Part shown: in pieces, positions 13,729-41,109 of the stretch | How positions within the stretch are numbered: position 1 is the first letter of the stretch | How the letters are laid out: every line of letters starts with the position of its first letter | Assembly: GCA_041631255.1 (NCBI GenBank) | Contig: JBFKKL010000002.1 | Location: 1 to 41,960 of the forward strand | Direction: 5' to 3' | Source of the DNA: Candidatus Woesearchaeota archaeon | Lineage (GTDB): Archaea; Nanobdellota; Nanobdellia; Woesearchaeales; UBA583 | DNA length: 41,960 bases | Position numbers and translations under genes: made by a program | The notes under the pieces: model-generated | Databases searched by the model: none | Told to the model about the DNA's origin: nothing | What the model saw: the letters and a program-made list of their open reading frames with translations, nothing else

Positions 13729-13730
13729 TT

Positions 13731-14474
13731 TCACAAACTAAAATCAAATGATTTTTTTGAGTCTAAAAAATCAGTTGCCCTAAAAGATAAAATCATAACT
13801 CCTCCTTCCATTTCACAAATCAAATCTTTCATCCCTTCATCAGATCTAAGCATCTTAAAAGATTTCAGTTTAGAAAATTGTTTTATATTTGCAATAAACC
13901 AAGAGTTTTGCAGTTTTGCATCATCTTTTGATTTAAATGCATCTTTTTCTCTAAATCCTACTTGAAAAAGAGGTTTGCCATTTGCAACACTTAATGAACT
14001 CTCATCTTCAACATTCTTGAATAAGTTTTCTTTCCCAAATATATTAACAAGTTCATTATAATTTTCTTGAGCTTCAGAAAAGAACCTATCAATTTCTTCA
14101 TTTTGTTTAGAACTAATTTCATCAATTGTTGCAAATTCATCATCCTCATCTTGAGTTTCATATTCAGAAATTTTCTCAACTTCAGGTAGCTTTTTGGTTT
14201 CAGGTTCAACTTTTTTTTCTTTAATAACTTCAACTTGGACAGGCGTTAACTCTTTTTCACGTTTATCAAGAAGATTTCTTACTCTGTTAATTTCATCAAC
14301 AGAACTCAATGTTGCAACAAACTCTTTTGGCGAAATAATTGTTTCTGAAGCTCCAAAATTTTCTTCAATTTCTTCACTTTCTCCATTCATCATAGAATCA
14401 AGTTTTCTTTGCTCTTCTTCACTTAAATTGTGATCTTCATCATTAGCAGAAAAAAAATTTTTGAAAAATCCCAT
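13731..14474 (-). CDS. acidic hypothetical protein with an amphipathic N-terminus
   Basis: 247-aa ORF. It starts MGFFKNFFS, has a very Glu/Asp-rich middle, and a C-terminal globular-looking part. I recognise no family. Confidence 0.6.
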   Translation of the reverse strand: MGFFKNFFSANDEDHNLSEEEQRKLDSMMNGESEEIEENFGASETIISPKEFVATLSSVDEINRVRNLLDKREKELTPVQVEVIKEKKVEPETKKLPEVEKISEYETQDEDDEFATIDEISSKQNEEIDRFFSEAQENYNELVNIFGKENLFKNVEDESSLSVANGKPLFQVGFREKDAFKSKDDAKLQNSWFIANIKQFSKLKSFKMLRSDEGMKDLICEMEGGVMILSFRATDFLDSKKSFDFSL

Positions 14475-14550
14475 AGAATTCCATTTAGAAACTGAATTTA
14501 AAAGAAGTTGTACAAACAGAAAGTAGAAACTACTAATAAAGACATAAACA

Positions 14551-14558
14551 TTTATAAA
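14551..14558 (+). promoter_or_regulatory. TATA-box-like element for glyS
   Basis: TTTATAAA is centred about 26 nt upstream of the ATG at 14581. Confidence 0.45.
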
Positions 14559-14580
14559 ACTATAAATTTAGCCTTTATCT

Positions 14581-16104
14581 ATGACAAAACTCTCAATTGA
14601 AGACGTTGCAACATTTTGTAAGAAAAAAGGATTTGTATTTCAAGCAGCGGAGATTTATGGAGGACTTTCAGGGTTTTTTGATTTTGGTCCACTTGGAGTT
14701 GAATTGAAGAATAATATAAAAAGAACATATATGAAAGAATTCGTTCATAAAAAAGATAATATTGTGGCTCAGGATGGAGCAATTATTACTAATCCAAAAG
14801 TGTGGAAAGCATCAGGGCATGTGGATAATTTTGCAGATTTAATTATAACAACAAAAACAACAAAAACAAAACTTAGGGCAGATCATTTTATTGAAGATGA
14901 ATTAAACATTCCTGCTGATGGTATGTCTGCTAAAGAGATTAACGAATTAATAAAAAAACACGACTTAAGGTATAAAGGAGAAGAACTTGAGGAAGTTAAA
15001 GACTTCAACTTAATGTTTGAGGCTCAAATTGGTGCAGACCCATCCAAGAATTCAACAAGTTATCTAAGGCCTGAAACATGTCAGTCAATTTTTCCAAATT
15101 TCAAATTAGTTGCTGATGTTTCAAGAGCAAAATTGCCTTTTGGTATAACTCAGGTGGGTAAAGCATTTAGAAATGAAATTTCTCCAAGAGACTTTGTTTT
15201 TAGATGTAGAGAATTTGAACAAATTGAAATGGAATATTTCTTTAATCCTAGTGAAGAGTGCAAAGAATTCCAAGATAAACATAAAAAACTCAAAGTTCAA
15301 TTACTTTCAGCAAAGACCCAAGATGAAGGAAAAGAAACAATGGAAGAAATTACTATTGAGGAAATTGTGAAGAGAGGAATTATTAACGAAACTCACGGTT
15401 TTCTGGCTGCAGAATTTATGATTTGGTTAACTGAGAAAATTGGGCTTGATTCCAAGAATTTAAGACTTAGAGAACATGTTTCAACTGAACTTTCACATTA
15501 CTCAAGAGGTACAGTTGACATAGATTATAATTATCCTTTCGGTTTCAAAGAGATGATAGGTATTGCAAATAGGGGTGACTTTGATTTGAAACAACATCAA
15601 GAACATTCAAAATCAAAACTTGAGTTTTTTGATGAAACATCTAAAACAAAATTAATTCCTCACGTTATAGAACCTTCTATGGGTATTGAGAGATTTTTCT
15701 TTGCAGTTCTTTATGAATCATATGAAGAAGATAAAGAAAGAGGAAATATTGTTCTTAAAATATCAAATACTTTAGCACCATACAAAGTTGCAGTCTTTCC
15801 TTTAATGAATAAACCTGAACTGACAAGTATTGCAAGAAAAATTCATGAAGAATTATTAGAAGAAGACATTGTATCATTTCTTGATGTGAGTGGTTCCGTT
15901 GGAAAAAGATACGCAAGGCAAGATGAGATAGGAACTCCATATTGTCTAACTGTTGATTATGAATGTATTGAAGAAGGTAAAGAGAAAGGAACAATAACAA
16001 TTCGTGATAGAGATTCAACAAATCAAAAGAGAATAAAAACTGAAAATATTCAAGACACAATTAGGAGTTTAATTAAAGGAAAAATAGAGTTCAAAGATTT
16101 ATAA
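14581..16104 (+). CDS. glyS: glycyl-tRNA synthetase (archaeal/eukaryotic-type class II)
   Basis: The N-terminus has AAEIYGGLSGFFDFGPLGVELKNNIK, class II motifs include FRNEISPR, and there is a C-terminal anticodon-binding domain. Confidence 0.93.
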   Translation: MTKLSIEDVATFCKKKGFVFQAAEIYGGLSGFFDFGPLGVELKNNIKRTYMKEFVHKKDNIVAQDGAIITNPKVWKASGHVDNFADLIITTKTTKTKLRADHFIEDELNIPADGMSAKEINELIKKHDLRYKGEELEEVKDFNLMFEAQIGADPSKNSTSYLRPETCQSIFPNFKLVADVSRAKLPFGITQVGKAFRNEISPRDFVFRCREFEQIEMEYFFNPSEECKEFQDKHKKLKVQLLSAKTQDEGKETMEEITIEEIVKRGIINETHGFLAAEFMIWLTEKIGLDSKNLRLREHVSTELSHYSRGTVDIDYNYPFGFKEMIGIANRGDFDLKQHQEHSKSKLEFFDETSKTKLIPHVIEPSMGIERFFFAVLYESYEEDKERGNIVLKISNTLAPYKVAVFPLMNKPELTSIARKIHEELLEEDIVSFLDVSGSVGKRYARQDEIGTPYCLTVDYECIEEGKEKGTITIRDRDSTNQKRIKTENIQDTIRSLIKGKIEFKDL

Positions 16105-16105
16105 A

Positions 16106-17815
16106 ATGAGAGATGATGTTATAAAACTTTTAGAAAAAGAACTAAAAATAAAAAATCTAGATTCACTTTTAGAAGTTCCAAAAATCAGAACTCAAGGAGA
16201 CTTATCATTTCCTTGTTTCATATTATCTAAAGAATTAAAAAAAGCTCCAAATGAGTTAGCACAAGATTTAGCACAAAAATTAAAACCTAGTAAGTCTATT
16301 TCAAAGATTCAAGCAATTGGCCCATATCTAAATTTTTTTTATAATAATAATCAAGTAATAGAAGAGATTTTTAAGAAAATTGAAAAAAAGCAAATTTTCA
16401 AAGTTAAATCAGAAAATCCACAAAAAATTCTAATTGAGTACCCTTCACCAAATACAAACAAAGCACTTCACATAGGGCATACAAGAAATATGCTACTTGG
16501 AAATACTTTAGGAAATCTTCTAAGTAAAACAGGTCACAAAATAATTCGAATTAATTTGAATAATGATAGAGGTATTGCAATTTGTAAAGCAATGCTTTCA
16601 TATAAACTATTTGGAAAAAATCAAGAGCCAAAAGATATGAACTTAGAGCCAGATGAGTTTGTGTCTCACTGGTATGTTAAATTCGGTGAAGAATGTAAAA
16701 AGAATTCTAATCTTGATAAGGAAGCTCAAGAAATGCTTTTGAAATGGGAAGAAGGAGATAAAGAAACAAGAGCACTTTGGAAAAAATTAATGAAGTGGGT
16801 TTTTCAAGGCTACAAAGAAACTTACAAAGATTATAAAGTTCAAAAATTTGACAAAGAATATTTCGAATCTGAAATTTATGACAAAGGTAAAGACATTGTA
16901 CTTGATGCTTTGAAAAATAAAGTTAAAGGTTTTGGAAGAGAAGAAGATGGTGCAACTTTTGTTGATTTAGAAGATAAAAAACTAGATAAAAAATATCTTT
17001 TAAGAGGAGATGGAACAACTCTTTACATGACTCAAGACTTATATTTAGCCAAATTAAAACAAGATGAATTTAAGGCAGACAAATACATATTTATAGTTGG
17101 TGAAGAGCAGCAATATCATTTCAAAGTCCTTTTTGAAATTTTAGATAGACTAGGGTTTGAAGGAAATAAAAAGAATGTCCATTATTCTTATGGTTATGTT
17201 TATGATGATAAAGGAAAAAAATTTTCCTCAAGGCTAGGAAATACAGTTGGAGCAAGAGACATTCTAAATCAAATGATTCAAAAAGCCAAAGAGAATTTAA
17301 AAGATAAAGAATTGACCAAGAATCTACCTGAAAAAGAATTGGACAGAAGAGCAAAGGTAATAGGTTTTGGAGCTTTATCATTTGTATTTCTAAGAGCAAA
17401 CCCCCAAAGTACAATTAATTTTGACATAAATAAAGCACTTAGTTTTGAAGGAGAAACAGGGCCTTACATTCAGTATACTTATGCAAGAATTAAATCAATT
17501 TTAAGAAAAGCAGAGTATAAGAAATCAAAAATAAATGTAGAGGTTTTCAAAGAAAAAGAAATTGAATTAATCAAAGAGCTTGGAAAATATGATGAAATTG
17601 TAAAAGAGGCTGAAGAAAAATATAAGATATCTCACATTGCACTTTATCTTCTAAATCTAGCTCAAATGTTCAATGATTTTTATCAAAATATTTCAGTTCT
17701 AAATGCAGAAAGTGCAGAATTAAAACAATCAAGATTAGTATTGTGTGATTATACTAGTCAAATTATTAAAGAAGGATTATCTATTTTAGACATTGATGTT
17801 CTTGAAGAGATGTAG
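16106..17815 (+). CDS. argS: arginyl-tRNA synthetase
   Basis: It has the HIGH-region motif SPNTNKALHIGHTRN. Class I architecture with a C-terminal DALR-like anticodon-binding domain. The ATG lies 1 nt after the glyS stop. Confidence 0.93.
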   Translation: MRDDVIKLLEKELKIKNLDSLLEVPKIRTQGDLSFPCFILSKELKKAPNELAQDLAQKLKPSKSISKIQAIGPYLNFFYNNNQVIEEIFKKIEKKQIFKVKSENPQKILIEYPSPNTNKALHIGHTRNMLLGNTLGNLLSKTGHKIIRINLNNDRGIAICKAMLSYKLFGKNQEPKDMNLEPDEFVSHWYVKFGEECKKNSNLDKEAQEMLLKWEEGDKETRALWKKLMKWVFQGYKETYKDYKVQKFDKEYFESEIYDKGKDIVLDALKNKVKGFGREEDGATFVDLEDKKLDKKYLLRGDGTTLYMTQDLYLAKLKQDEFKADKYIFIVGEEQQYHFKVLFEILDRLGFEGNKKNVHYSYGYVYDDKGKKFSSRLGNTVGARDILNQMIQKAKENLKDKELTKNLPEKELDRRAKVIGFGALSFVFLRANPQSTINFDINKALSFEGETGPYIQYTYARIKSILRKAEYKKSKINVEVFKEKEIELIKELGKYDEIVKEAEEKYKISHIALYLLNLAQMFNDFYQNISVLNAESAELKQSRLVLCDYTSQIIKEGLSILDIDVLEEM

Positions 17816-18156: not shown

Positions 18157-18468
18157 ATGACATTAGAAACAGATAAAAACGCAATAGAAGGTATGTTCAA
18201 AACAGTTGAAAATTTCAAAAAAGAAATAAAAAAAGATGCAAATTTTAGTGCAGAATTTAGGTCTTTAGAAAATTGGATGGAAAACTTAACAGACATAACT
18301 GCAAGTGAACATTATTTTACCCTTCAAAGTTTGATTGAAGATATGAGAATTAATTTAAACAATCCTTTTTCTCTTATATCAGTAGTTGATGATTATGAAA
18401 AAACTCTGAACAAACTATATGAGGAGTTAGGGTATAGAATCAGGGACAGCCAAAGAAAAGCTGCTTAA
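18157..18468 (+). CDS. hypothetical helical protein (103 aa)
   Basis: ORF with a T/A-rich element about 26 nt upstream and a T8 run directly downstream. No recognisable motif. Confidence 0.5.
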   Translation: MTLETDKNAIEGMFKTVENFKKEIKKDANFSAEFRSLENWMENLTDITASEHYFTLQSLIEDMRINLNNPFSLISVVDDYEKTLNKLYEELGYRIRDSQRKAA

Positions 18469-18475
18469 ACATCAC

Positions 18476-18483
18476 TTTTTTTT
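18476..18483 (+). terminator. oligo-T tract (T8), possible archaeal intrinsic terminator
   Basis: TTTTTTTT lies 8 nt after the stop at 18468. Archaeal RNA polymerase terminates at oligo-T tracts. Confidence 0.3.
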
Positions 18484-18522
18484 ACACCAAATCTTTTTAA
18501 AAAAGAATCATATAAAATTCTT

Positions 18523-19926
18523 ATGTTACAAAAACTCTACGATCTTGTTTTTGGTCTTGATGAATTTGAAAAAACAAAAATAGATTTAAGATTTGATTTA
18601 ATTGAAGAAATTTTACCTAAAATTCATATTAATACAATTCAAGATTTTGACCTTCTAGAATCATGCATTTTCAAGATAAAAGACCAATTAAGAATTAGAA
18701 GTTCTAATTTGAACAGGATAATTAATGATCCGAAAAAAAATTTAACAAAAACAAAAGTTGAAAATTATTTGAACATATTATCTTCTTTAAGAAAATCATT
18801 TTTACATGAAGCATTTGATGCTATAAGGCCAGAAATTCAAAATATTGAAGCGTCTCAAGAACCAATTATCCAAGAAAAAGAAGAACTTAATCAAGAATCA
18901 AAAAAAGAAACATCTAAAAGAGAGTTAGAAATCATAAGTAACGCTAACTACGCCGTAAAATTAAAAAATGCATCACCTCAATATTTAGAAGTTACTTTTT
19001 CAAAGGAAATTGATTTGAATCTTCTAAAAACTTTAAGTTCAATAGTATTTGAAGTTTTCAAAGCTCAAGGAACAAATATAATAATTGAGAATAATATTGG
19101 AAGAATCTATCCAAGGTTCCAATCAGACAATCTATTTACACTTCCAACTATAGATGTTGATTTAGATGAAATTGAGAGAAAATTAAAAAAAGAAGAAAAA
19201 CAAACTAAAGAAGAGTCTATTGACTATTATCCTGTTGAAGAAAAGCAAGAAATCAAAACTCACAAAAAACAAGAGGATTCACTTGATGAATTGATTTCGG
19301 GAATTGAAAAGAAAAATCATACTCCAACACACAAACCTGAAGAAATAAAAGAAGATATTAACATCATAAAAACAGAACCAATTGAGATAGAAAAAGATAA
19401 TGTAAAAAAAAATGAAATAGAAATTGAAAAACAAGAAGAAACAATTTCAAAAGAAATAAATCAAAATTTCGAAATTTACAGAGATGAACATATAAGAGCT
19501 TTTCTAAGAAAAACTTCGAAAGCTAAAGGAGAATTGCTTGTAGAAACAATTCAAAAGAAGCCCCTAGGAGCTCTTTCAGAACAGGAACTCTCATACATAA
19601 CCATTTTTACAAAAATTTTCTCATCAGTTGTATTTGAGACTTTAAATGCAAAAGGAACAAACGTTATTTGGGACATGTTAGATTCTCAAATTCATATCAT
19701 TCCAAGGGATGATAATGATTCTTTAGGTTTAAGTTGGAATCCTAAGAAGGATTCTGATGAGTTTTTGGAACAAGTAAGAAGCAAATTAATTGCCAAAATG
19801 CAAGGTGAGCTTCAAGATGAAATATCTCTAAAAGAAATAAAACAAGAAGCTAAAATGCCTTCTAAGGACGCATCTCCTAAAGAAAAGGCAGATTTCATAC
19901 TTGATGCTCTTAAAAGAATCCCTTAA
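18523..19926 (+). CDS. hypothetical protein with two degenerate HIT-like (histidine-triad fold) domains
   Basis: The second domain, FEIYRDEHIRAFLRKTSKAKGELLV...ETLNAKGTNVIWDMLDSQIHIIPRDDND, follows the HIT layout but keeps only one His of H-x-H-x-H. The first domain (VFEVFKAQGTNIIIENNIGRIYPRF) keeps none. Confidence 0.6.
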   Translation: MLQKLYDLVFGLDEFEKTKIDLRFDLIEEILPKIHINTIQDFDLLESCIFKIKDQLRIRSSNLNRIINDPKKNLTKTKVENYLNILSSLRKSFLHEAFDAIRPEIQNIEASQEPIIQEKEELNQESKKETSKRELEIISNANYAVKLKNASPQYLEVTFSKEIDLNLLKTLSSIVFEVFKAQGTNIIIENNIGRIYPRFQSDNLFTLPTIDVDLDEIERKLKKEEKQTKEESIDYYPVEEKQEIKTHKKQEDSLDELISGIEKKNHTPTHKPEEIKEDINIIKTEPIEIEKDNVKKNEIEIEKQEETISKEINQNFEIYRDEHIRAFLRKTSKAKGELLVETIQKKPLGALSEQELSYITIFTKIFSSVVFETLNAKGTNVIWDMLDSQIHIIPRDDNDSLGLSWNPKKDSDEFLEQVRSKLIAKMQGELQDEISLKEIKQEAKMPSKDASPKEKADFILDALKRIP

Positions 19927-19970
19927 TGGTGATAGTAATATTTAAAAACAAAATCTTTTTTCCGTTATTT

Positions 19971-20408
19971 ATGAGAAAACGTCCATTGCGGTCAGAAAAA
20001 GTTTCCTTTCTCTTAGAAAATAAACATTACAGGAGACTTCACTTAATGCTATATTTATTCAGTGTTATAGTTATAGTATTGATTTATTTTATGTTTATTA
20101 TGCTTTTTTCAAATATCTTCCCAATTGTAATTGTTGGAATTATATCCTTAATTATTGGTATAGCACTTGTATTTAAAAGAGACAAATTAGTTTTAACAAT
20201 TAGTAATAAACTTCAAGAAAGAAAAATTAAAGAGCACAAGAAAGCAAATAAGCACGGTTTGCACTCAACTTTAAGAAAAATTACTCCAAAAAGAAAAAAA
20301 AAAATTAATGTGACGCCAAGGGCATCAGTTAAAGATCATATTAACCATCTTAAAGGAAAACTTTCTAAAAAGAAGAAAGGAAAAGATGATTATATCGAAT
20401 TAAAGTGA
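19971..20408 (+). CDS. small membrane protein with a Lys-rich C-terminal tail
   Basis: Two hydrophobic helices (LMLYLFSVIVIVLIYFMFIMLF and PIVIVGIISLIIGIALVF) precede a highly basic tail. I prefer the ATG at 19971 (MRKRP...), which has a TATA-like TATTTAAAAA about 26-30 nt upstream, over the track start at 19926. Confidence 0.55.
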   Translation: MRKRPLRSEKVSFLLENKHYRRLHLMLYLFSVIVIVLIYFMFIMLFSNIFPIVIVGIISLIIGIALVFKRDKLVLTISNKLQERKIKEHKKANKHGLHSTLRKITPKRKKKINVTPRASVKDHINHLKGKLSKKKKGKDDYIELK

Positions 20409-23140: not shown

Positions 23141-23683
23141 TTAATTTACAATTTGTAAATCTACAAACATTGTTTTTTGAATTGTTGTACCATCGGGTTT
23201 ATATTCAAATTTTAAAGAGAACTGACTTCCATCAGCACATGAACCAGGAATTTGAATTACGGCAGGAACTGCTTCAACACTAGCAGCAGGAACTGTAACA
23301 TCTTGTACAAAAATGTTAGTTGCCTCAAAGCAAGAGTTAGCTGCTCCAATTGCAGTAACTGAAGTTGTAATTTGTGCAGTTGTCCCTAGTTCTAAAGGCG
23401 CATCTTGAACATTTTGAACTTTAAAGAAAATTCTTCTAGAATCTCCAGGTCCCATTTTAAGAGTTTCAGGTGAAACTGCAAACACTCCTGATTTTCCAAT
23501 TGCTGCTTGTTTATCAGCAGTTTCAGTCTCTGAAAGTTGCCCTTCGAACTGTGAACTTGCTTGCCCAATAAGTCCTGTTACAAATGAAATAACAAGTCCA
23601 ATTACAACAAGTCCAATAATAAGCATAATAATCAGGTTAAGAGACATCTCAACCGCTCCTTTTTTCTGATATTTAGATACCAT
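23141..23683 (-). CDS. prepilin-like (class III signal) protein with an Ig-like beta-rich body
   Basis: A basic leader MVSKYQKKGA is followed by VEMSLNLIIMLIIGLVVIGLVISFV. Size and layout match the 13189-13728 protein. A TATA lies about 26 nt upstream. Confidence 0.65.
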   Translation of the reverse strand: MVSKYQKKGAVEMSLNLIIMLIIGLVVIGLVISFVTGLIGQASSQFEGQLSETETADKQAAIGKSGVFAVSPETLKMGPGDSRRIFFKVQNVQDAPLELGTTAQITTSVTAIGAANSCFEATNIFVQDVTVPAASVEAVPAVIQIPGSCADGSQFSLKFEYKPDGTTIQKTMFVDLQIVN

Positions 23684-28727: not shown

Positions 28728-31274
28728 ATGACAATTGACACATTCTCTGTTGATAGAAGCAAGTATGATAATGCTGATAATGTAAAAGCAAAATATACTG
28801 CAAAACCGGGCCTAAACGAGAGTGTAGTACGTAAAATCTCTAAAGATAAAAAAGAACCAGAATGGATGTTAAATAAAAGGTTAAAAGCTTTAGAATTATT
28901 TCAGAAAACAAAAATTCCAACTTGGGGTCCAGATTTAAAAAATTTAGATTTAGATAAAATAGTTTACTATGTTGATCCAAACGCTAAAGAATCAAAAAGT
29001 TGGGATGATGTCCCTGAAGATATTAAGAAAACATTTGATAGGTTAGGAATTCCTCAAGCAGAAAGAGAAGCACTTTCAGGAGTTGGAGCTCAATATGATA
29101 GTGTAGTAGTTTACCACAATCTAAAAAAAGAGTGGGAAGATAAAGGAGTTATCTTTGAGAATATGGATAACGCTGTTAAGAAATTTCCAGAACTTGTAAA
29201 AAAATACTTTATGACTTCCTGTGTTCCAGTTAACGATCATAAATTTGTAATGCTTCACGCAGCAGTTTGGTCAGGAGGAACATTCATTTACATTCCACCT
29301 AAAGTTAAAGTAGACATTCCTCTTCAAGCATATTTTAGGATGAATCAAGAGGGAGGAGGACAATTTGAGCATACTTTAATTATCGCAGATAAAGGTTCAG
29401 AAATTTCATACATAGAAGGATGTTTTACAAAAGGTAATTTAGTTCAAACTGAAAACGGTCAAGTTCCAATTGAAAGAATTAAACAAGGAGAATTAGTTTT
29501 ATCTCATGATGGAACTTATCACAAAGTAAAAAAAGTTTTATCACATAATTATTCTGGAGAAATCTTCAAGATTTCTTGCTATGGAGATTCAACTCAAGAT
29601 ATCGAAACAACATTTGAACATCCTTTTCTTTGGGTTAAAAGGGAAAGGAGTAACGAGAAAAATAGGAGTTGGAAAAAAGAATGGAATATTCCAAAGTATG
29701 TGTCTAAAGGAGATTACCTTTGTATTCCAAGAATCAAGAAAATTGAGATTCAATCTAAAAGAAAATTTAAAATAAAAGAGTTTATAGGAAGAAAGCAGGG
29801 ATATAAAGATGTATATAAAGTTGTAAAAACAGATAAAGATTTTTTTAAATTAGTTGGGTATTATCTTGCAGAAGGGAGTATCTCTAAAGGTTCATATCTT
29901 AATTTTTCTTTTGGAAGTCATGAAAGAGACCTTATAGAAGATGTAAAAAAACTTATGAAAAATGTTTTTGGAATTGAAAAATCTTATGAGGCAATTCACG
30001 AAGTAAATAATGGGACTAGTGTTGTTTTTTCAAGTGTTGAATTTTGTAGAATATTTGAACAATTTGGAAAATCTTGTGATACTAAAATACTTCCAGAATG
30101 GGTTTTGTTTGAGGATTTTGAAAAACAGAAGGAACTTCTGAAAGCTTATTGGCTTGGAGATGGAAATTTTTACAGTAAGAGAACGGCTGTAAAAGGTTTT
30201 TTAAAAGAAGTGATAAGAACAAACACTATATCTGAAAAATTAGCAAAACAAATAAGAAACATGTACATTAGATTGGGAATTCCGGCATTTATAAATAAAA
30301 GAGATAGGAGTAAAGAAGGGAGAAAAACTATGTTCACAATAGGCATTTCAGGATACTATCTTAAAGAAGTTGGAAAAATTTTAGGGTTAAAATTAGAAGA
30401 CAAGATAAATGGCAAAAAAAGGGCAAGTATGTTTCACATTGATGAAGAGTATCTTTATGTTCCAATCAAATCAATTAGCAAAAGAAAGACAAATAAAGAA
30501 AAAGTATACAACTTCTCAATTTCTAAAACTGAAACATATACTGTGGCCGGAGTTACAGTTCATAATTGCTCAGCGCCAAGGTTCAACTCGAACGCACTTC
30601 ACGCGGGGTGCGTTGAACTTCACGCTCTTGAAGGCGCTAAAATAAAATATTCTAGTATAGAAAATTGGTCAAAAAATACGTACAATTTAAATACAAAAAG
30701 GGCAATTGTTCACAAAAATGCGCAAGTAGATTGGGTTAATGGAAACTTAGGTTCAGGAAGGACTATGCTTTATCCATGTTCAATTCTTCTAGGAGAGAAT
30801 TCAAGAACTCAAAGTTTAGGTATTGCTTTTGCAGGGCAAGATCAAAATCAAGATACAGGGACAAAAGTAATCCATATAGGAAAAAATTCATCATCTTTAA
30901 TTAGAGCAAAATCTATTTCTAAAGATGGCGGAATTTCAACTTACAGAGGACTTGTGAAAATTTCAAAATTCGCAAGTGGCGCTATATCTAGTGTTGATTG
31001 TGACGCTTTAATGGTAGGAGAGAATTCAATTTCAAAAACTATTCCTCAGATGGAAACTCAATTATCAGATTCTCAAATTAATCATGAAGCAAAAACAGGA
31101 AAGATTGGAGAAGAAGAATTATACTATTTAAAATCCAGAGGACTTAATGAAGAGGAAGCAAAACAGATGATAGTTTCAGGTTTCATAGGCCCAATTGTGA
31201 AAGAATTACCACTTGAATACGCAGCAGAGTTAAACAAATTAATACAACTTGAAATGGAATCAACTTTAGGATAA
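28728..31274 (+). CDS. sufB: Fe-S cluster assembly protein SufB, interrupted in-frame by an intein
   Basis: The N-extein ends ...GSEISYIEG and the C-extein starts CSAPRFNSNALHAGCVELHA..., which rejoin to the conserved SufB YxEGC[ST]AP motif. The extein total of 466 aa is a normal SufB size. Confidence 0.93.
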   Translation: MTIDTFSVDRSKYDNADNVKAKYTAKPGLNESVVRKISKDKKEPEWMLNKRLKALELFQKTKIPTWGPDLKNLDLDKIVYYVDPNAKESKSWDDVPEDIKKTFDRLGIPQAEREALSGVGAQYDSVVVYHNLKKEWEDKGVIFENMDNAVKKFPELVKKYFMTSCVPVNDHKFVMLHAAVWSGGTFIYIPPKVKVDIPLQAYFRMNQEGGGQFEHTLIIADKGSEISYIEGCFTKGNLVQTENGQVPIERIKQGELVLSHDGTYHKVKKVLSHNYSGEIFKISCYGDSTQDIETTFEHPFLWVKRERSNEKNRSWKKEWNIPKYVSKGDYLCIPRIKKIEIQSKRKFKIKEFIGRKQGYKDVYKVVKTDKDFFKLVGYYLAEGSISKGSYLNFSFGSHERDLIEDVKKLMKNVFGIEKSYEAIHEVNNGTSVVFSSVEFCRIFEQFGKSCDTKILPEWVLFEDFEKQKELLKAYWLGDGNFYSKRTAVKGFLKEVIRTNTISEKLAKQIRNMYIRLGIPAFINKRDRSKEGRKTMFTIGISGYYLKEVGKILGLKLEDKINGKKRASMFHIDEEYLYVPIKSISKRKTNKEKVYNFSISKTETYTVAGVTVHNCSAPRFNSNALHAGCVELHALEGAKIKYSSIENWSKNTYNLNTKRAIVHKNAQVDWVNGNLGSGRTMLYPCSILLGENSRTQSLGIAFAGQDQNQDTGTKVIHIGKNSSSLIRAKSISKDGGISTYRGLVKISKFASGAISSVDCDALMVGENSISKTIPQMETQLSDSQINHEAKTGKIGEEELYYLKSRGLNEEEAKQMIVSGFIGPIVKELPLEYAAELNKLIQLEMESTLG
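29421..30566 (+). mobile_element. SufB intein (382 aa) with a LAGLIDADG homing endonuclease domain
   Basis: Cys1 is TGT 29421-29423 (CFTKGNLV, block A) and block B is TTFEHPF. The two LAGLIDADG motifs are LVGYYLAEGS and AYWLGDGN. Blocks F/G are VYNFSI...TVAGVTVHN, followed by the +1 Cys (TGC 30567-30569). Confidence 0.9.
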
Positions 31275-33787: not shown

Positions 33788-35566
33788 ATGCAAAGCGATC
33801 TTCTTTCATCTTCCAGACATAAGGCAAGTGCAACTAAAGCTAAAAGGGAAGAAGAAATCATAAATACTGAACTAATTTTTGGAGGAATCAATGAAGATAT
33901 AACTGAAAGCTATTTTTGGCATATGAATTTTGCTTACTATGCAAATAGAGGTTATTTCACGCTAAAACTTGAAGATCACCACTATTTTAGTGAGGTTTCC
34001 CAATTTGGAGGAAACTTAAGGCAAGTCAAAGGAGGATCAATTAGAGCTTTTCAAGAGAATTTGAATCAACTTGTCCAATTAATCAAAGTGCACATGATGC
34101 CACTTTTAAAAGAAGTAAAGGAGGCTCATTTCTATAAAACTTGGATAGACAGAATTGTTGAAAATGACATTATTGTTCAAGAAGAATTAAAGAAAACTCC
34201 GAGCGGTAATGTGAGAAAGAACAATGATAGGTTAAGAAAAGCAGAAAGTGAAAGGGACGAAGCAATTAGTCATATCAAAGATAAGTGGGTAAATGAAATT
34301 GATCAAGGAAGATTATGGCAAATGAATAAGTCAGCAGCTGAAGGAGGATTAGATTTTGCATTGCTTCCACAGTTATTTTTTGGAACTAAACTTGACAATC
34401 CACTTTATGAACTTCATAAAGAAGGTTTGACTTTAAAAGAACAACTTGATGATTACATTTACAATATTGATATAACTGAAGATGCCAAGCTACAAGTTGC
34501 AAGATTTCATTATAGGTTTTTAACTTGGCTTCCAAGTGCTATAAGAGAAACTAAAACTACATTTAATATAAAACTAGCTGCATTAAAACAATTTTACGCC
34601 CAACTTCAAATGTATATTGATTTTATGAAACCTCTTTTAAGAGAAATTTCTCAAAAAAAAGAAAGTTTTGAGAGCAATAGTATGTATAAAGGATTTGAGT
34701 CAGAACATCCTTCTTTTTTAGCTTTACTTGATACATCTCATTCATTTTCAAGACTTTTGGGAGTTAAAGGGCTTGAAAAAGACATAATTAGTTTAGAAGA
34801 ATTAGAATTTTTAGAGGGAGGATTTTTTATAGAGTCAAAAGAAAATAAAAAAGGAATTATGTTTGGAAAGTGTGCAGGAAAAAATGCTTTTATAGTTGGA
34901 GATGAAACAAAATCTGATGGAATATGGTATAAAGTAAAGCTTTTTAATGGGTCAAGAGAGAATGCTGCAAAACTTTCAAAAGGAGAAGTAAATAAGTTAA
35001 AAGAAGAAATAATTCCAAGAGAAGATTTGAAAGTTTTCACAATTATTGAATTTGAATTTTCACAACAAAGAAGATCAGAACAAATTCAAACTCAGCAAGG
35101 ACCTCAATTGTTACCAGTTATGAAGAATAGGATTGGATACAAAGGTTTTGCTTGGAATCTATATGAAATTGCTACATATAGACTTTCAGTAAAAGAAGAA
35201 AGTTTAGAACTTTTAGAAACATTCATAGGGGAGATCTCAGTCATAAAAGAAGAACTTCTTTATTATGTCCAAGGTATGAAAGGGGATGCACCCTGGGAAA
35301 AAGCAGAAAAATATTCACAATCAAAAAAAGAGGAAAAAAAAAGTAGTGATTCAGCGTTAGTAAAAGGTCCAATTGAAGGTTTTGGAGAATTATTTTCTCC
35401 ACTAATTCCTTCATTCAAAAAAAAAGAACGAAATAGGGGAGAACTAAAAAAGAATTTTTCTGAAGCACAAGAAAGACACCATAGAATAACAAAGTTAGTT
35501 ACTGCAGAAGATACTTACAAATGTTATTCAGTTCATAAAAAAACTCATGGATACATTGATATGTAA
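33788..35566 (+). CDS. orphan hypothetical protein (592 aa), predicted cytoplasmic, helix-rich
   Basis: Long uninterrupted ORF with no hydrophobic segment, no P-loop and no motif I recognise. Its stop (35564-35566) lies 1 nt before the ATG of the next gene. Confidence 0.7.
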   Translation: MQSDLLSSSRHKASATKAKREEEIINTELIFGGINEDITESYFWHMNFAYYANRGYFTLKLEDHHYFSEVSQFGGNLRQVKGGSIRAFQENLNQLVQLIKVHMMPLLKEVKEAHFYKTWIDRIVENDIIVQEELKKTPSGNVRKNNDRLRKAESERDEAISHIKDKWVNEIDQGRLWQMNKSAAEGGLDFALLPQLFFGTKLDNPLYELHKEGLTLKEQLDDYIYNIDITEDAKLQVARFHYRFLTWLPSAIRETKTTFNIKLAALKQFYAQLQMYIDFMKPLLREISQKKESFESNSMYKGFESEHPSFLALLDTSHSFSRLLGVKGLEKDIISLEELEFLEGGFFIESKENKKGIMFGKCAGKNAFIVGDETKSDGIWYKVKLFNGSRENAAKLSKGEVNKLKEEIIPREDLKVFTIIEFEFSQQRRSEQIQTQQGPQLLPVMKNRIGYKGFAWNLYEIATYRLSVKEESLELLETFIGEISVIKEELLYYVQGMKGDAPWEKAEKYSQSKKEEKKSSDSALVKGPIEGFGELFSPLIPSFKKKERNRGELKKNFSEAQERHHRITKLVTAEDTYKCYSVHKKTHGYIDM

Positions 35567-35567
35567 A

Positions 35568-36119
35568 ATGAAAATTAACAAAAAAGGATCATTAGCTCAA
35601 GAAATGTTACCCTTTATAATTGGGCTTTTAATAATTTACTTTTCTCTATTTTTTTTATCCAAACTTATGATTTCAACTTCAGAGCACATAGAAAAATCTC
35701 CTCCTGAACTTACATATGAATTTCCAGCAACCTTTATTTATAGTTTTTTAAATTATGAATTAACTGATTCAGAAAAATCTCAAATGGATTTAAATCCAAA
35801 CTCAACTTATTTTGTGAAAGATATTATCAAAGAAAATTCAGATAAAAATTTTAACATTCTAAAAAATAGTGTGAGAAAAAGATATCTTGATTGGTCCAAT
35901 CAAGCTTTAGTTGGTACATCAACTATGCATACACAGTACAAAAAATTCTCAGGTCAAAATTATAATGTAGATTCTATTTTAGTTTTAGAAAACAACTTAC
36001 AATCACCACCAAATTTAGATTTAGCAATAGAAAAAAAAAATTATGTATTTTTTTTAAAAACTAATGATGGGACATATTCTGCAATTCTTTTCAAAGAACA
36101 AAGTGGGGTATTACAATGA
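35568..36119 (+). CDS. prepilin-like (class III / type IV pilin-type signal) protein, 183 aa
   Basis: The leader MKINKKG is followed by SLAQEMLPFIIGLLIIYFSLFFL, with Glu at +5 after the Gly. I prefer the ATG at 35568 over the track start at 35547, which lies inside the upstream gene. Confidence 0.6.
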   Translation: MKINKKGSLAQEMLPFIIGLLIIYFSLFFLSKLMISTSEHIEKSPPELTYEFPATFIYSFLNYELTDSEKSQMDLNPNSTYFVKDIIKENSDKNFNILKNSVRKRYLDWSNQALVGTSTMHTQYKKFSGQNYNVDSILVLENNLQSPPNLDLAIEKKNYVFFLKTNDGTYSAILFKEQSGVLQ

Positions 36120-38383
36120 GAAAATCAAAGAAAGGGTTATCATTTATACTTTTGATGTCAGTTTTTACTTTTGTAGCTTTTTTAATGGCAAACATTCTTT
36201 TAATTTCTCCAGCAAGATCAAGTGTTGATGACATTGAATTTGGAGAACAGCTAAAAAAAAGCTCATTAACTCAAGCTAAACTCCCTGCAGAAGAATTTTA
36301 TTTACAAAACGTAGTTGATACAGAAATAGAAGAAGTAAAAAACTATTTTTCAAAACAAAATATACTTCAATCTGGAGGCTCTTCTTGTGTTTCAACCAAT
36401 TCTGAATATTGGTACGATGAAAGTCAAGGAAGTATTAATTCAACAGATTCTCAAGGAAATACTATTATTAAAAACAAATGCCTCCCAAATTTTGATTCAA
36501 CGCTTTTACAAAAACTTTATGGTGAAATCGAATCTGAAATCAAATCTGAATTAGAAGATAGTAAAGATAAAAGAGGTGTTACGGACACTTCAATTTCACT
36601 TGAACTGGGACAAGACTTAGGAGCAGACATTAACCTTCAAAGTCTCTACAAAATTGAAACTTCAACTTCAACTTCAACAATTCCTTTATCTTTCACTCAA
36701 AAAATATCTTTAGAATCATATGCAAAAACTTTGGAAAATATTGTAACTAATCTTCCAAATGTTCCAATCGAATTGTCAAATGAAGTACAAATTTGTCTTG
36801 AAGGAAATTCAAATAAAACAAAAGATATTTGTATAGAAGAAATTGTTAAGAAAAGATTGGATTTAAATTCTAATGTTTCCGATTTTTCAACACGAGTAGA
36901 TTATCTCAACACATTTTCTGATAAAGATTATTTCGTTTTAGATATTGGAATAGTAAATCAAAAAACAAAAAATTTAGAGTTTTCATTTAGAATTAAACTT
37001 GAAAATTCAATTCCTTTTGAATTAGTAGGTTTCAATGTTGAGAATAGTTTAAGAAATAACAATGTTCTAAAAGTTTCAATTAACAAACCTGTTGACACAA
37101 CAAATTTACATGGATTTATTATTCTTTATTCATATGAAAATTTCTTTGATGAATCAAGTTATGGAAAAGAAAAGTATGATAATCTAATTCAACTATTAAA
37201 AGATAGACAAGTCCCTCCAAAATTTTCTCCAAGAGTCTCTCACTTTGAAGGAAGGACGGGTAAAAAAATTGATGAAAGTTCGCACACAATTTTTCATTCA
37301 TATTCAAATTTAAATTTGAATGCACTATACATTCCTTGGGAAAATCAACAAAAAGTAGAAACTTTCATAACTCAAAATTTTAATTCAGTTTCAAATAAAT
37401 ATGAAATTCTAGAAAATATTCCGGTTCACGTATTCGTGTTTGCAGTGGACAAACAATTTAATTATTATATAAATCCAGAATTATTCAAACAAAGAATTCA
37501 ATCTAAAACTCCTCAAATAAATTTTGGCCCTTCAGGACTTGAGAAAAATAAAGTGACTCTTGAAGCTCAAAGACAGGGGTTCGATTCAACACTTTTTATT
37601 GACATAAAAGATTATGATGATGAATTTTTTTCATACTATGATTTATACGTAATAAAAAAACAAGACGAACTTAGTTTGAAACCTAGATGTGAAGGGGCGA
37701 GCGTTCCTTGTTTTTATTACAATGGTAATGGAAAATTAACTAGCAAAGATTCAAAAATCGCTTTAACTTCTTCTCAACTTTCAAATGAGCAAAAGAATCA
37801 AATATCTGAATATGAAATCATTCAAACAACAATCTTTCCTCTTGAAAGTTTAGAAGAATACATTGTACAAATTATACCTATTGGAGTAACAGGGATTGGA
37901 ATTACAAAAACGGAATTAAAACAATTTGAATTTGTTGAAAGTTCAATTGGACCACAAGGAGATGAAACAAATTATTTGAAAGCAGTTCAAGTTGATAAAA
38001 GAGAAGAACCTTTCAAAGAAAAGTTTGTACCTCTTGACCAAACTCCTCCGGACCCAATGACTTCAATTCAAGTTTCACAAGGTTTAATTCAGGTAAACCA
38101 AGAAGGAGTTGAAGTATTATATATTCAATGGTCTCCACTTGAAGCAGGTATTGAAAAAATTAATGTCTTAGTTGAAGTATATGATTCAACAGGAACTACA
38201 AAAATAGATTCCATTCCTAAATTCATAACTCTTGATAATACTAAAGTAATTGATTTAGATTCTTCAATAGGTAAAGTTGAAGTAAAACCTATAATTCCTA
38301 TTGATAGTAGTGGGAATCAAGTTGGCAATCCTCAAGCTTATCAGGGCCAAACTCAAAGTGCATTCTGGACAAGAGTTAGTTAG
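36116..38383 (+). CDS. large prepilin-like surface protein (755 aa) with FN3/Ig-like modules
   Basis: ATGA start/stop overlap with the preceding gene. The leader MRKSKKG is followed by LSFILLMSVFTFVAFLMANILLI. FN3-like signatures occur later (IPFELVGFNVEN...LKVSINKP...GFIILYS and DQTPPDPMT...LYIQWSPLEAG). Confidence 0.7.
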   Translation: MRKSKKGLSFILLMSVFTFVAFLMANILLISPARSSVDDIEFGEQLKKSSLTQAKLPAEEFYLQNVVDTEIEEVKNYFSKQNILQSGGSSCVSTNSEYWYDESQGSINSTDSQGNTIIKNKCLPNFDSTLLQKLYGEIESEIKSELEDSKDKRGVTDTSISLELGQDLGADINLQSLYKIETSTSTSTIPLSFTQKISLESYAKTLENIVTNLPNVPIELSNEVQICLEGNSNKTKDICIEEIVKKRLDLNSNVSDFSTRVDYLNTFSDKDYFVLDIGIVNQKTKNLEFSFRIKLENSIPFELVGFNVENSLRNNNVLKVSINKPVDTTNLHGFIILYSYENFFDESSYGKEKYDNLIQLLKDRQVPPKFSPRVSHFEGRTGKKIDESSHTIFHSYSNLNLNALYIPWENQQKVETFITQNFNSVSNKYEILENIPVHVFVFAVDKQFNYYINPELFKQRIQSKTPQINFGPSGLEKNKVTLEAQRQGFDSTLFIDIKDYDDEFFSYYDLYVIKKQDELSLKPRCEGASVPCFYYNGNGKLTSKDSKIALTSSQLSNEQKNQISEYEIIQTTIFPLESLEEYIVQIIPIGVTGIGITKTELKQFEFVESSIGPQGDETNYLKAVQVDKREEPFKEKFVPLDQTPPDPMTSIQVSQGLIQVNQEGVEVLYIQWSPLEAGIEKINVLVEVYDSTGTTKIDSIPKFITLDNTKVIDLDSSIGKVEVKPIIPIDSSGNQVGNPQAYQGQTQSAFWTRVS

Positions 38384-38447
38384 TTTTTTCTTCAAGTGAT
38401 ACGTTACATTTATAAGAGTAAAAGGTTCGGCATTTACTAAATTAAAA

Positions 38448-39722
38448 ATGGTTGCAATTTGCTTTTACTTTCAGGTCCATCAACCTTATAGAATTAAACC
38501 TTATAGAATATTTGACATTGGACATAACGACTCTTATTTTGACGAGAAAAAAAATCATGACATTATGCATAAAGTAGCTCACAAATGCTATCTTCCTATG
38601 AATCAAGTTCTTCTTGATTTAATCAATAAACATCATGGAAAATTCAAAATTTCATTTTCAATTTCAGGTGTTGCCCTAGAACAAATGGCAGAATATTATC
38701 CTGAAGTTTTGGAATCATTTCAAAGACTTGCTCAAACAGGTTGTGTTGAATTTTTATCTGAAACTTATTATCATTCATTAAGTTTCTTATACTCTCATGA
38801 AGAATTCAAAGAACAAATCGACAAACACAAAGAACTTATTAAGAAATACTTTAATCAAGAACCTCAAGTTTTCAGAAATACAGAATTAGTTTACACAAAT
38901 GATTTAGCAGACTTTATTGAAGAGTTAGGTTACAAAGGAATAATTTCTGAAGGATGGGATACAGTTTTAGGTTGGAGGTCACCTAATTTTGTTTACGAAC
39001 CTCAAAATACAAAAGGACACATTGCACTTTTAACTAAAAACTATAAACTCTCCGACGATATTGCTTTTAGGTTTTCAAACAGGGGCTGGGCTGAATGGCC
39101 ATTAAGCGTTGAGAAATACACAAGTTGGGTTAACTCAGTAAATGGTGTTGGTGATGTTATCAATCTATTTATGGATTACGAAACATTTGGAGAACATCAA
39201 TGGGCAGACACAGGTATTTTCGAATTCATGAAAGTTCTTCCTGAACAAGTATTAAATCATCCTGATAATTGTTTCGTAACGCCTAGTGAAGCAATTGAGA
39301 AGTTTCCTAAAAGGGATAAATTAGATGTACCTTTTCTTTTATCTTGGGCAGATACTGAAAGAGACTTAAGTGCATGGCTTGGAAATAAAATGCAACATTC
39401 ATCAGTTAGAGAAATTTTTGAACTAGAAAGGGAAGTTAAATCTTTGAACAATCCAAAACTTCTTGACTCTTGGAGAAAATTAACAACATCTGACCACTTT
39501 TATTATATGTGCACAAAATATTGGGAAGACGGAGATGTTCACAAGTATTTCTCAGCTTATGATTCTCCATATGATGCTTACGTTTATTTCATGAATTGTT
39601 TGAATGATTTAATAATTAGGATTCAAAGGGAGAAAGATAAGCTTCAGGTTCAGAAATCATTTGCAAAAGCACCAGAAAAAGCTGTTGACATCAATGGACT
39701 TAAGAGTGCTGTTGAAGACTAA
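38448..39722 (+). CDS. glycoside hydrolase family 57 (alpha-amylase-like)
   Basis: N-terminal ICFYFQVHQPYR motif and MDYETFGEHQW catalytic-region motif. The 424-aa length fits short GH57 enzymes. Confidence 0.88.
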   Translation: MVAICFYFQVHQPYRIKPYRIFDIGHNDSYFDEKKNHDIMHKVAHKCYLPMNQVLLDLINKHHGKFKISFSISGVALEQMAEYYPEVLESFQRLAQTGCVEFLSETYYHSLSFLYSHEEFKEQIDKHKELIKKYFNQEPQVFRNTELVYTNDLADFIEELGYKGIISEGWDTVLGWRSPNFVYEPQNTKGHIALLTKNYKLSDDIAFRFSNRGWAEWPLSVEKYTSWVNSVNGVGDVINLFMDYETFGEHQWADTGIFEFMKVLPEQVLNHPDNCFVTPSEAIEKFPKRDKLDVPFLLSWADTERDLSAWLGNKMQHSSVREIFELEREVKSLNNPKLLDSWRKLTTSDHFYYMCTKYWEDGDVHKYFSAYDSPYDAYVYFMNCLNDLIIRIQREKDKLQVQKSFAKAPEKAVDINGLKSAVED

Positions 39723-39724
39723 AC

Positions 39725-40255
39725 ATGAAACATATTTCATATAATTATTTTAGACCTTTTTTTTATTTTAATAGATTGTTTGCATTTTTCATAATTATTT
39801 CTTTAAGTCTAACATTCATGTTAATGAGTTTAGAAGAATTTTCAATAGAAATGTTTTTTCTAAAATTCTTTATTGTTTTTTTTATGATTATGGCAATAGG
39901 TGTTTTAGTTGAGTTTTCTTCCAAAGGAGAATACATTAATCCTCTTGATTGTTATTCAGTTCAAGGATTTGTAAAATCTTTTCTTGAAGTTTGTGAATTG
40001 GAGGGTGTCAATAAAGCAAAAAATTATCTTTTAAAATATGACAATAAATCCAAAAAATTTATCCAAAAAAACTTACACAACAGAAAATATTTTATCAGTA
40101 CAATAAAAAAGGAGAAGAAGACTTTTATTGTAACATTAATCGATGAAAAGAAGTTTTTTGAATATTTTTTTATCAAATTTTTTGTAAGAAAAGCAATAAT
40201 AAAACTATATATCCACAAAAAAGGCAACTCATTTGAGATAATTAGGTGCAGTTAG
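39725..40255 (+). CDS. hypothetical membrane protein (176 aa)
   Basis: The ATG lies 2 nt after the GH57 stop. Two hydrophobic helices are followed by a Lys-rich soluble part. No recognisable motif. Confidence 0.5.
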   Translation: MKHISYNYFRPFFYFNRLFAFFIIISLSLTFMLMSLEEFSIEMFFLKFFIVFFMIMAIGVLVEFSSKGEYINPLDCYSVQGFVKSFLEVCELEGVNKAKNYLLKYDNKSKKFIQKNLHNRKYFISTIKKEKKTFIVTLIDEKKFFEYFFIKFFVRKAIIKLYIHKKGNSFEIIRCS

Positions 40256-40353
40256 TTTTTCTCAAAAACTTAAAACTCAATAATTATTTATGTTTTGTTA
40301 AAAAATAAAAACCTTTATAAATAATCTATTGCTTAATATATGAAGAGAAAAAA

Positions 40354-41109
40354 ATGGTTAACGTATTAAAATTAAATGTAGCTGAAACATACCATTCAGA
40401 TATTGGGAAAGGAATTGTTAGAGTTGATAAGAAAACTCTTTCAAATTTAGATTTGTCTGAAGGGGATTATATTCTAATTAAAGGAAAATCAGAAACACTT
40501 GCAAGAGTTTATCTAGCTCTTCCAGAAGATGAAAATTTAGAAATTCTAAGGATGGACTCTTCAATTAGATCAAATGTTGGAGTAACCCTTGGAGATCAAG
40601 TTGATATTCAAAAAGCTCAAGTAAGTGAAGCAAAAACTCTTGAAATTTCTCCTACTGAAGAAGTAAAATTTTCAGGAGACCCAACTGCTTTATTTCATGA
40701 GAAATTAAATGGTAAAGCTTTAGTAAAAGGGAATGTAGTTCAATTCAACATTATGGGAACAACACTTCATTATGTTGTAACTAAAACTAATCCTAAAAAA
40801 TTTGTTAGAGTAACTAAAGATACTAAATTAAAAGTTTTAGATAAAGTAACTAAGCCTCAAGATTTGAAAGTTCCAAGTATTACATATGATGATATTGGAG
40901 GATTAAAAGAAGAAGTTTCGGCAATTAGAGAAATGATTGAAATTCCTATGAAACATCCAGAAGTATTTGAGAGAATTGGGATTTCACCTCCTAAAGGAGT
41001 TTTACTTTATGGGCCTCCTGGAACTGGTAAAACTCTTCTTGCTAAAGCTCTTGCAAACGAACTTGATGCTTATTTCAAAGTAATCAATGGTCCCGAAATT
41101 ATGAGTTAA
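40354..41109 (+). CDS. cdc48: CDC48/VCP-like AAA+ ATPase, N-terminal part (N domain + D1 Walker A), ending at a premature in-frame TAA
   Basis: N-domain LKLNVAE...[10 protein letters not shown]...GDYILIKG, then ITYDDIGGL and Walker [14 protein letters not shown]. It stops at TAA 41107-41109 within [14 protein letters not shown]. Confidence 0.9.

Follow-up and report, generated by a model that had tools for sequence, protein, structure and literature searches.

The A-B-C genes and their conservation

Three consecutive genes, here called A, B and C, occupy positions 33788-38383 on the plus strand of a 41,960-nt stretch of DNA (the window) from contig JBFKKL010000002.1 of a Candidatus Woesearchaeota archaeon. 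Gene A (33788-35566) is an open reading frame (ORF) for a cytoplasmic protein of 592 aa, whose family, so far uncharacterised, is conserved in Nanoarchaeota and Woesearchaeota. Gene B (35568-36119) encodes a 183-aa protein with a class III-like signal, MKINKKG/SLAQE, and a predicted alpha+beta ectodomain, and gene C (36116-38383) encodes a 755-aa protein with a class III-like signal, MRKSKKG/LSFILL, and a large, cysteine-containing ectodomain (slashes mark putative cleavage sites). Gene A stops with TAA at 35564-35566, a single base ahead of the ATG of B at 35568, and the stop of B and the start of C lie within one ATGA (36116-36119), which points to translational coupling. An alternative in-frame ATG for B at 35547 would give a 190-aa product, and the orthologues favour the start at 35568. 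An earlier reading of the window from its letters (the sequence-only reading) had placed the three genes, the one-base spacing and the overlap at these same positions, and all of them were confirmed.

Related loci were gathered by contig look-ups, by a scan of species-representative genomes (17 loci) and by a metagenome scan. The order A-B-C was kept in all 21 distinct related loci with downstream DNA, the window not counted, and the complete genomes that carry it include CP060218.1 and OZ242164.1; the 1.09-Mb contig ERZ25074195 ctg52608 has it as well. Synteny among relatives had been chosen beforehand as a test of the sequence-only reading, which had taken the genes for one coupled triad, and that proposal came through it with the same order at every locus. 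Across the loci A measures 570-620 aa and B 180-215 aa, and C, which is transmembrane-anchored, falls into two size classes, of about 400-430 aa (the subclade of L001, L002, L015 and L016) or 590-790 aa. The junctions are short throughout the 18 loci in which they were measured, with a median A/B gap of 1 nt (maximum 27 nt) and a median B/C gap of 2 nt (maximum 29 nt); in 14 of these 18 loci the A/B junction is 0-7 nt. On average, pairs of A orthologues are 45% identical, against 21% for B and 20% for C. We conclude that A-B-C is a conserved, tightly coupled operon specific to one Woesearchaeota/Nanoarchaeota-type branch of the DPANN archaea. The organism itself is a DPANN archaeon, since the homologues of A lie in metagenome-assembled genomes (MAGs) labelled Nanoarchaeota, Woesearchaeota or Nanoarchaeia.

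The flanks of the triad vary among loci, except for a frequent downstream block of genes for GH57, a 176-aa transmembrane protein and CDC48; of the first 18 loci, 7 had the GH57 gene of this block. In the window, a T6 run (38384-38389, plus strand) directly follows the stop codon of C and is a possible archaeal oligo-T terminator ending the A-B-C unit, and a TTTATAA box (38409-38415) lies ahead of the GH57 ATG at 38448. The run and the TATA-like box suggest that A-B-C is a transcription unit separate from GH57. A GH57 glycoside hydrolase gene downstream of the triad was seen in the window (38448-41109) and in L003, L005, L007, L009, L017, L018, L026 and L027, and this neighbourhood, to which a multi-transmembrane protein of about 176 aa is mostly added and CDC48 often, looks conserved. 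Six of the loci (L003, L006, L009, L012, L017 and L018) come from MAGs labelled 'Bdellovibrionales bacterium' or 'uncultured Methanosarcinales archaeon', which are probably mis-binned or mislabelled. A viral or mobile origin of the triad was rejected: IMG/VR held no relative of A, the flanks carry housekeeping genes (those of the window include TBP, proteasome alpha, Cbf5, aIF5A, SepF and several aminoacyl-tRNA synthetases), and the GC content is even, at about 29-31% throughout the window.

N-terminal signals and ectodomains of B and C

The B leader, MKINKKG (35568-35588), has a putative prepilin-peptidase site after Gly7 and is followed by the hydrophobic H-domain SLAQEMLPFIIGLLIIYFSLFFLS (35589-35660), the sole transmembrane segment of B, with Glu at +5. 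The C leader, MRKSKKG (36116-36136), likewise has a putative cleavage site after Gly7, followed by LSFILLMSVFTFVAFLMANILLIS. Both leaders, and the Glu at +5 of B, are as the sequence-only reading had given them, and its assignment of prepilin-type N-termini was borne out by the orthologues. A single, N-terminal transmembrane segment was present in 18/18 B and 18/18 C orthologues tested. The residue at -1 is small in both families (G in 13, A in 7 and S in 1 of 21 B orthologues; G in 12, A in 7 and S in 1 of 20 C orthologues), a basic residue stands no more than two positions ahead of it, and the two families share the leader motif [NS]-K-K-[GA]. An acidic residue occurs at +5 in 9/21 and somewhere between +3 and +6 in 15/21 of the B orthologues, being shifted in some to +4 or +6, and 5/21 have Gln at +1. 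Among 20 C orthologues, none has an acidic residue at +1 to +8.

The published PilFind rule asks for [GAS]-[uncharged]4-[DE] within 35 residues of the N-terminus with 14 uncharged residues after it, for one transmembrane segment in the first 50 residues, and for a length of at most 350 aa (PMC3244431). It is met strictly by window B, with 19 uncharged residues after the motif, and by 7 of the 17 other B orthologues tested; with respect to length, B (183 aa) lies within the limit and C (755 aa) beyond it. The window and 21 loci supplied 293 non-overlapping ORFs of 100 aa or more, to which we applied an ad hoc class III rule as a control. A single N-terminal transmembrane segment was found in 55 of the 293, and 29 of these 55 passed, namely 27 B and C orthologues and two other pilin-like ORFs of the window; none of the 26 other single-transmembrane signal-anchor ORFs from the window and the 21 loci did so. 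The signals are thus specific when set against other signal anchors, and B and C are predicted to carry class III (prepilin-type) signals, not ordinary signal anchors.

The two other passing ORFs are both on the minus strand. One (23141-23683, 180 aa) begins MVSKYQKKG/AVEMSLNLIIMLIIGLVVIGLV (KKG/AVEMSLNLIIML), and the other (13189-13734, 181 aa) reads KNKLA/MELPIQIVVTMIIGLVIFGLGFG (KLA/MELPIQIVV). Both resemble canonical small archaeal pilins, without a Pfam match. Their presence suggests that the organism makes type IV-like filaments, whose machinery would be encoded outside the contig, and a class III pathway is thus likely to be present.

Features of the regions behind the membrane helix point outwards. 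Six cysteines are conserved in C (C91, C122, C227, C239, C525 and C532), with usually six per protein, and the number per B orthologue is 0, 2 or 4, always even. The ectodomains of both families have only about a quarter of the N-glycosylation sequons expected, with 7 observed against 28.7 expected for B (0.24) and 31 observed against 134.7 expected for C (0.23), and window C itself contains 3 where 8.4 are expected (shuffle P=0.015). No such depletion is seen in the A family, with 56 observed against 57.3 expected (0.98). The depletion would fit selection that keeps proteins within reach of the oligosaccharyltransferase from being glycosylated, and, together with the even, conserved cysteines, it suggests that the B and C ectodomains lie outside the cell, disulfide-bonded and free of N-glycans. 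Their fast divergence, to about 20% identity, is what may be expected of an exposed interaction surface. A 510-aa ORF elsewhere in the window (8642-10174, minus strand) has a class III-like start, (V)KKA/IGPVVAVSLLLIVAVV, and no Pfam domain; opposite to B and C, its sequons are enriched twofold, with 17 observed against 8.1 expected (P=0.001).

We modelled B with AlphaFold2 from 14 sequences. The best model had a predicted local distance difference test score (pLDDT) of 76.5, and the other four scored 45-55. In the best model a 26-residue helix (8-33) is followed by a linker (34-46, pLDDT <50) and by a domain that is mostly helices and includes a sheet of three strands. Pfam gave no domain in 18 B orthologues, profile searches of the PDB with B and C were empty, and scans of A, B and C against PHROG and NCBIfam (the latter also with two neighbouring ORFs) returned nothing. 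The sequence-only reading had seen FN3/Ig-like signatures in C, which find no support in Pfam: at E<=0.01, neither window C nor 14 orthologues matched an fn3, Ig or adhesin family, and the one match was a chance hit to a plant domain of unknown function. Tandem Ig-like repeats within C were rejected, as hhalign found none among five C segments. A homologue search with C as a single sequence gave two homologues and a profile search gave one besides the query, its candidate list probably swamped. By sequence, then, neither an FN3/Ig nor an adhesin domain can be detected in C, which may yet have a beta-sandwich fold.

Protein A, its superfamily and other genes of the window

The sequence-only reading had described A as a protein with no transmembrane segment, P-loop or recognisable motif, and the searches upheld this description. 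With a transmembrane cutoff of 1.6 for the mean Kyte-Doolittle hydrophobicity in a 19-residue window, the maximum in A is 0.85; two A orthologues (L003 and L005) each have one window above the cutoff. A Walker A motif ([AG]xxxxGK[ST]) was found neither in A nor in about 17 A orthologues, and A had no profile match in Pfam, NCBIfam, PHROG or the PDB. The 98 full-length clusters of A homologues, at 40-54% identity, are all unnamed or hypothetical.

An AlphaFold2 model of A from a 36-sequence alignment reached a pLDDT of 75.7 and a predicted template-modelling score (pTM) of 0.62. From the N-terminus it comprises a hairpin module, very long helices (84-136, 147-171 and 231-293), a beta domain (317-456) with two hairpins of about 19 residues, more helices, a disordered K/E-rich stretch and a conserved C-terminal helix. 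Foldseek searches of the PDB and BFVD with this model gave no match at E<1e-3, with template-modelling scores of about 0.1 or lower, and no match to an ATPase, a PilB/FlaI/VirB11-type RecA-like ATPase having been considered. Homology of A to a known family unrelated to the envelope, which would have spoken against a surface module, was accordingly found in none of Pfam, NCBIfam, PHROG, the PDB and BFVD, and no known fold was matched. Other assignments were tried and rejected. Peripheral membrane attachment through an amphipathic C-terminal helix does not agree with a hydrophobic moment of only 0.05-0.36 in the last 40 residues or with the model, in which this helix is confidently placed against the body of A. 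A START/Bet v 1-like lipid binder was proposed by Foldseek with a top probability of at most 0.23 and template-modelling scores below 0.1, and the match to levivirus maturation proteins in BFVD was equally weak and not meaningful.

A profile search of 1.84 billion representatives with A gave 163 clusters (at 50% identity), none with a name beyond 'hypothetical'; only 22 of them score below 1e-30. Most are distant relatives, which we call A', of 450-560 aa and, where a source is named, from MAGs of Woesearchaeota or unclassified archaea. The homology of A' and A is evident by tblastn (E 1e-8 to 1e-26), and the two share aromatic and proline-rich invariant positions and a C-terminal Y-x-x-x-K-K motif. 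In six A' loci (L020-L025; A' of 520-590 aa) the gene is followed by genes for soluble proteins, not transmembrane proteins: in many cases an acidic one of roughly 150 aa, and in every case a soluble, xylose-isomerase-like TIM-barrel protein of 560-730 aa with a large insertion (PF01261, 48-50 bits against a cut-off of 31.1; PDB relative MJ1311). C is not related to this TIM-barrel partner (C'), as neither blastp nor hhalign detected any similarity. A therefore belongs to a family whose members stand in conserved operons beside differing partners, and it is not intrinsically a pilus component; its pairing, as A', with a soluble TIM-barrel enzyme means that it is not pilus-specific.

The A' loci had further features. 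Upstream of A' we found a CRS1_YhbY gene in 4/6 and a Na+/H+ exchanger gene in 4/6, and type IV filament platform genes lie 4-7 kb upstream in L022 and L024, with an ATPase gene as well in L022. In L021, from a Woesearchaeota MAG, an ORF of more than 1700 aa (13675-17563) matches all bacterial sigma-70 regions in Pfam (r1_2, r2, r3 and r4), which is unexpected in an archaeon.

Lastly, we surveyed the rest of the window, in which an Rfam scan detected a tRNA-Leu only. Further protein genes are an intein-containing SufB, SufD, SufS and CDC48. The SufB gene (28728-31274, plus strand) is split by an intein with a LAGLIDADG homing-endonuclease domain, as judged by Hint, Intein_splicing and LAGLIDADG_3 matches between the SufBD N-terminal and core regions. 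A gene on the minus strand (4976-6451) encodes a secreted, 491-aa protein that is very rich in Cys, Gly and Ser and has two TSP1_ADAMTS (PF19030) thrombospondin type 1 repeats, which are unusual in an archaeon; it has far fewer sequons than expected (1 against 8.5, P=0.0005), and two small ORFs with signal or transmembrane segments follow on the same strand (6435-6872 and 6884-7438). Three adjacent ORFs on the plus strand (18157-20408; 103, 467 and 160 aa) have no Pfam match. The 467-aa protein is K/E-rich and consists of two similar halves, and the 160-aa protein has transmembrane segments and a very basic tail.

A candidate surface module, its alternatives and known systems

We favour, at about an even chance of its being right, the reading that A-B-C is a lineage-specific surface module, in which two proteins with class III signals and an uncharacterised cytoplasmic partner are encoded by a vertically inherited, translationally coupled operon. 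B and C would be exported and each held by one N-terminal hydrophobic helix behind the [NS]-K-K-[GA] leader; the leader would be removed by a class III signal peptidase of the PibD/FlaK/EppA type, presumably encoded elsewhere, and the two proteins would then pair on the cell surface. There they might stay membrane-tethered through the helix, in the manner of pseudopilins or a bindosome. Alternatively B, with an acid at +5 as in Epd and bacterial pilins, might be a minor subunit of a type IV filament built elsewhere, to which C would contribute a large functional ectodomain. A would be the cytoplasmic partner, made in step with B and C, and is more likely a general scaffold, chaperone or regulator than a pilus motor, because its superfamily is also paired with a soluble TIM-barrel enzyme. 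Cleavage, incorporation into a surface complex or filament, an adhesive role and contact between A and B or C are all steps that we infer.

The position of the triad relative to pilus machinery limits what it could be. [quoted passage not shown] The sequence-only reading had found no assembly ATPase, platform protein or prepilin peptidase in the window. Our scan agrees, with no T2SSE, T2SSF or Peptidase_A24 among the window ORFs scanned, the window being where the prepilin peptidase was looked for. Woesearchaeota relatives that encode T2SSE or T2SSF do exist (L022 and L024), and the T2SSE and T2SSF genes of L022 served as tblastn queries for the flanks of the A-B-C loci. The triad does not in itself amount to a filament system and is at most a pilin-type operon that lacks machinery.

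Several results weigh against the surface module, in particular where it borrows from pili. The search of the flanks just mentioned, which extended up to 8-10 kb where the contig allows, detected no T2SSE or T2SSF homologue at any A-B-C locus, a result still compatible with a pilin role. A pilin fold has a long N-terminal alpha-1 helix whose C-terminal half is packed against a beta-sheet or an Ig-like domain. The best model of B has no such continuous helix packed on its sheet (the pilin 'lollipop'), one of the five models being confident, and Foldseek returned no PDB match for it at E<1, and no pilin, pseudopilin or archaellin; the structural comparison that had been proposed together with the sequence-only reading thus went against a pilin-like B. 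The scoring of the N-termini, also proposed at that stage, came out divided: window B passes the PilFind rule, and C fails it on length and on the absent +5 acid. Even in B the +5 acid is not universal, being absent from 12/21 orthologues. Pfam pilin N-terminal models matched neither B nor C, in full length or as the first 60 residues, at E values up to 10; the three other pilin-like ORFs of the window are equally unmatched, so this test has low power here. Finally, the partners of A' are cytoplasmic, so the presence of A in the operon says little about a function at the surface.

The main rival explanation, which we consider rather unlikely and still the best of the alternatives, is that B and C are uncleaved type II (N-in/C-out) signal anchors, in which K-K-[GA] is a positive-inside juxtamembrane motif. 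A-B-C would then be a complex in the membrane that has nothing to do with type IV filaments, and A might dock on the short cytoplasmic tails. A helix of transmembrane length (8-33), a flexible linker and a globular domain, as in the B model, are what a typical tethered membrane protein would have, and this explanation also accommodates the lack of a pilin fold match and of nearby pilus genes, and the size of C, which is far above that of known pilins (PilFind cut-off 350 aa). It has difficulty, however, with the signals themselves. The pattern of [KR]-[GA] followed by an uncharged helix occurs in 0/26 of the other single-transmembrane ORFs from the same loci, G or A stands at -1 in 39/41 orthologues (B 20/21, C 19/20), and a conserved acid near +5, inside the membrane helix of B, is hard to explain for a plain anchor. 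In addition, the cytoplasmic tails, of 5-25 residues, are variable except for the KK[GA] motif.

A quite improbable alternative, close to what the sequence-only reading had proposed, is that B is a minor pilin and C the tip adhesin of a type IV pilus for host attachment, with A as a pilus-specific assembly factor. Window B does satisfy every PilFind criterion, the +5 Glu included, and Gln at +1 together with Glu at +5, as in EppA substrates, is seen in some B orthologues. The speed at which B and C diverge is in keeping with a surface that faces the host. There are precedents for large modular pilins and for class III proteins that resemble adhesins (PMC8179133; bioRxiv 10.64898/2026.04.22.720090), as well as for coiled-coil intracellular accessory proteins in some archaeal type IV pilus (T4P) loci (PMC4858521). 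Against these points stand the predicted fold of B, which is not pilin-like, the lack in C of an adhesin, Ig or FN3 domain by sequence, the absence of the +5 acid from C and from the B orthologues counted above, the lack of linkage to ATPase or platform genes in the flanks searched, and the pairing of the A superfamily elsewhere with a soluble TIM-barrel enzyme.

A might also have a function of its own, as a housekeeping or regulatory protein whose gene happens to stand in a compact operon with B and C, so that the triad would be no functional unit; we regard this view as very unlikely. Compact shared operons are common in streamlined genomes, housekeeping genes flank the triad, the identity of A is twice that of B and C, and A' homologues occur without B or C. 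Yet A and B are separated by 0-7 nt at most loci, the gene order is constant in 21 loci despite differing flanks, and within the A-family branch at 40-54% identity B and C follow downstream in every case, a pattern that speaks for the three being inherited together. Similarly remote is the prospect that the A superfamily is a hitherto unrecognised, DPANN-specific cytoplasmic scaffold whose partners differ between branches, and that in the branch with B and C it replaces or bypasses the ATPase and platform to position or extrude these two as a minimal host-contact tether; if so, prepilin-type proteins would be assembled here in a novel manner.

DPANN archaea rely on being in physical contact with their hosts, and beyond a few cultured pairs the molecules involved are, to our knowledge, largely unknown. 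With the present analysis, what was a curiosity of a single genome becomes a defined candidate for DPANN surface biology, shared across a lineage. What is new are the B and C protein families and their partner family A, whereas their signal type is known. If B and C are surface-exposed and processed, they would offer concrete targets for localisation and host-binding studies in Woesearchaeales enrichments, and the A/A' superfamily, with 163 clusters and two alternative conserved partners, is a tractable family of protein 'dark matter'. The value of the A-B-C finding lies in a well-delimited hypothesis rather than in a demonstrated mechanism.

Among known systems, the pilins of the Epd type (TFF system 1), which are processed by EppA in Methanococcus maripaludis, come closest to B. 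They have, like B, a short basic leader ending in K-K-G, and the likeness extends to the +1 Gln of some B proteins and the +5 acid of many, followed by an uncharged helix. The combination of +1 Gln and +5 Glu characterises EppA substrates, the Epd pilins of Methanococcus, and the +5 acid is not obligatory in archaea (PMC4371748); TFF system 1 (Epd-like) has been reported in DPANN archaea (bioRxiv 10.64898/2026.04.22.720090). Unlike the Epd-type pilins, B is predicted to have an alpha+beta ectodomain of about 140 aa behind a flexible linker, with no pilin-like fold; it has no similarity to Pfam pilin models and never adjoins ATPase or platform genes in the loci examined, and no EppA was identified for it in the window, where the peptidase was looked for.

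With respect to C, large or modular proteins with class III signals include Streptococcus sanguinis PilB, a modular minor pilin, and large FlaFind-positive proteins of Haloferax volcanii (PMC8179133; PMC4371748), and adhesin-like class III proteins are encoded in Epd loci (bioRxiv 10.64898/2026.04.22.720090). As in C, a prepilin-type signal is joined there to a big ectodomain, the would-be functional end. Unlike them, C has, as far as its sequence tells, no recognisable pilin module, no grafted vWA, lectin, Ig or FN3 domain and no internal repeats. For A, the nearest counterparts are the intracellular accessory proteins encoded in archaeal T4P loci, such as AapX and the coiled-coil arCOG07564 (PMC4858521). 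By description, they are likewise cytoplasmic, helix-rich partners next to pilin genes. Their loci also encode an ATPase and a platform protein, whereas the A locus does not, and the A superfamily, unlike them, also pairs with a TIM-barrel enzyme.

The substrate-binding proteins of the Sulfolobus bindosome carry class III signals on cell-associated surface proteins that are not part of pili (PMC4371748). B and C differ from them in having no solute-binding-protein domain and no adjacent ABC transporter genes; what they would have in common is that surface proteins with class III signals need not form pili.

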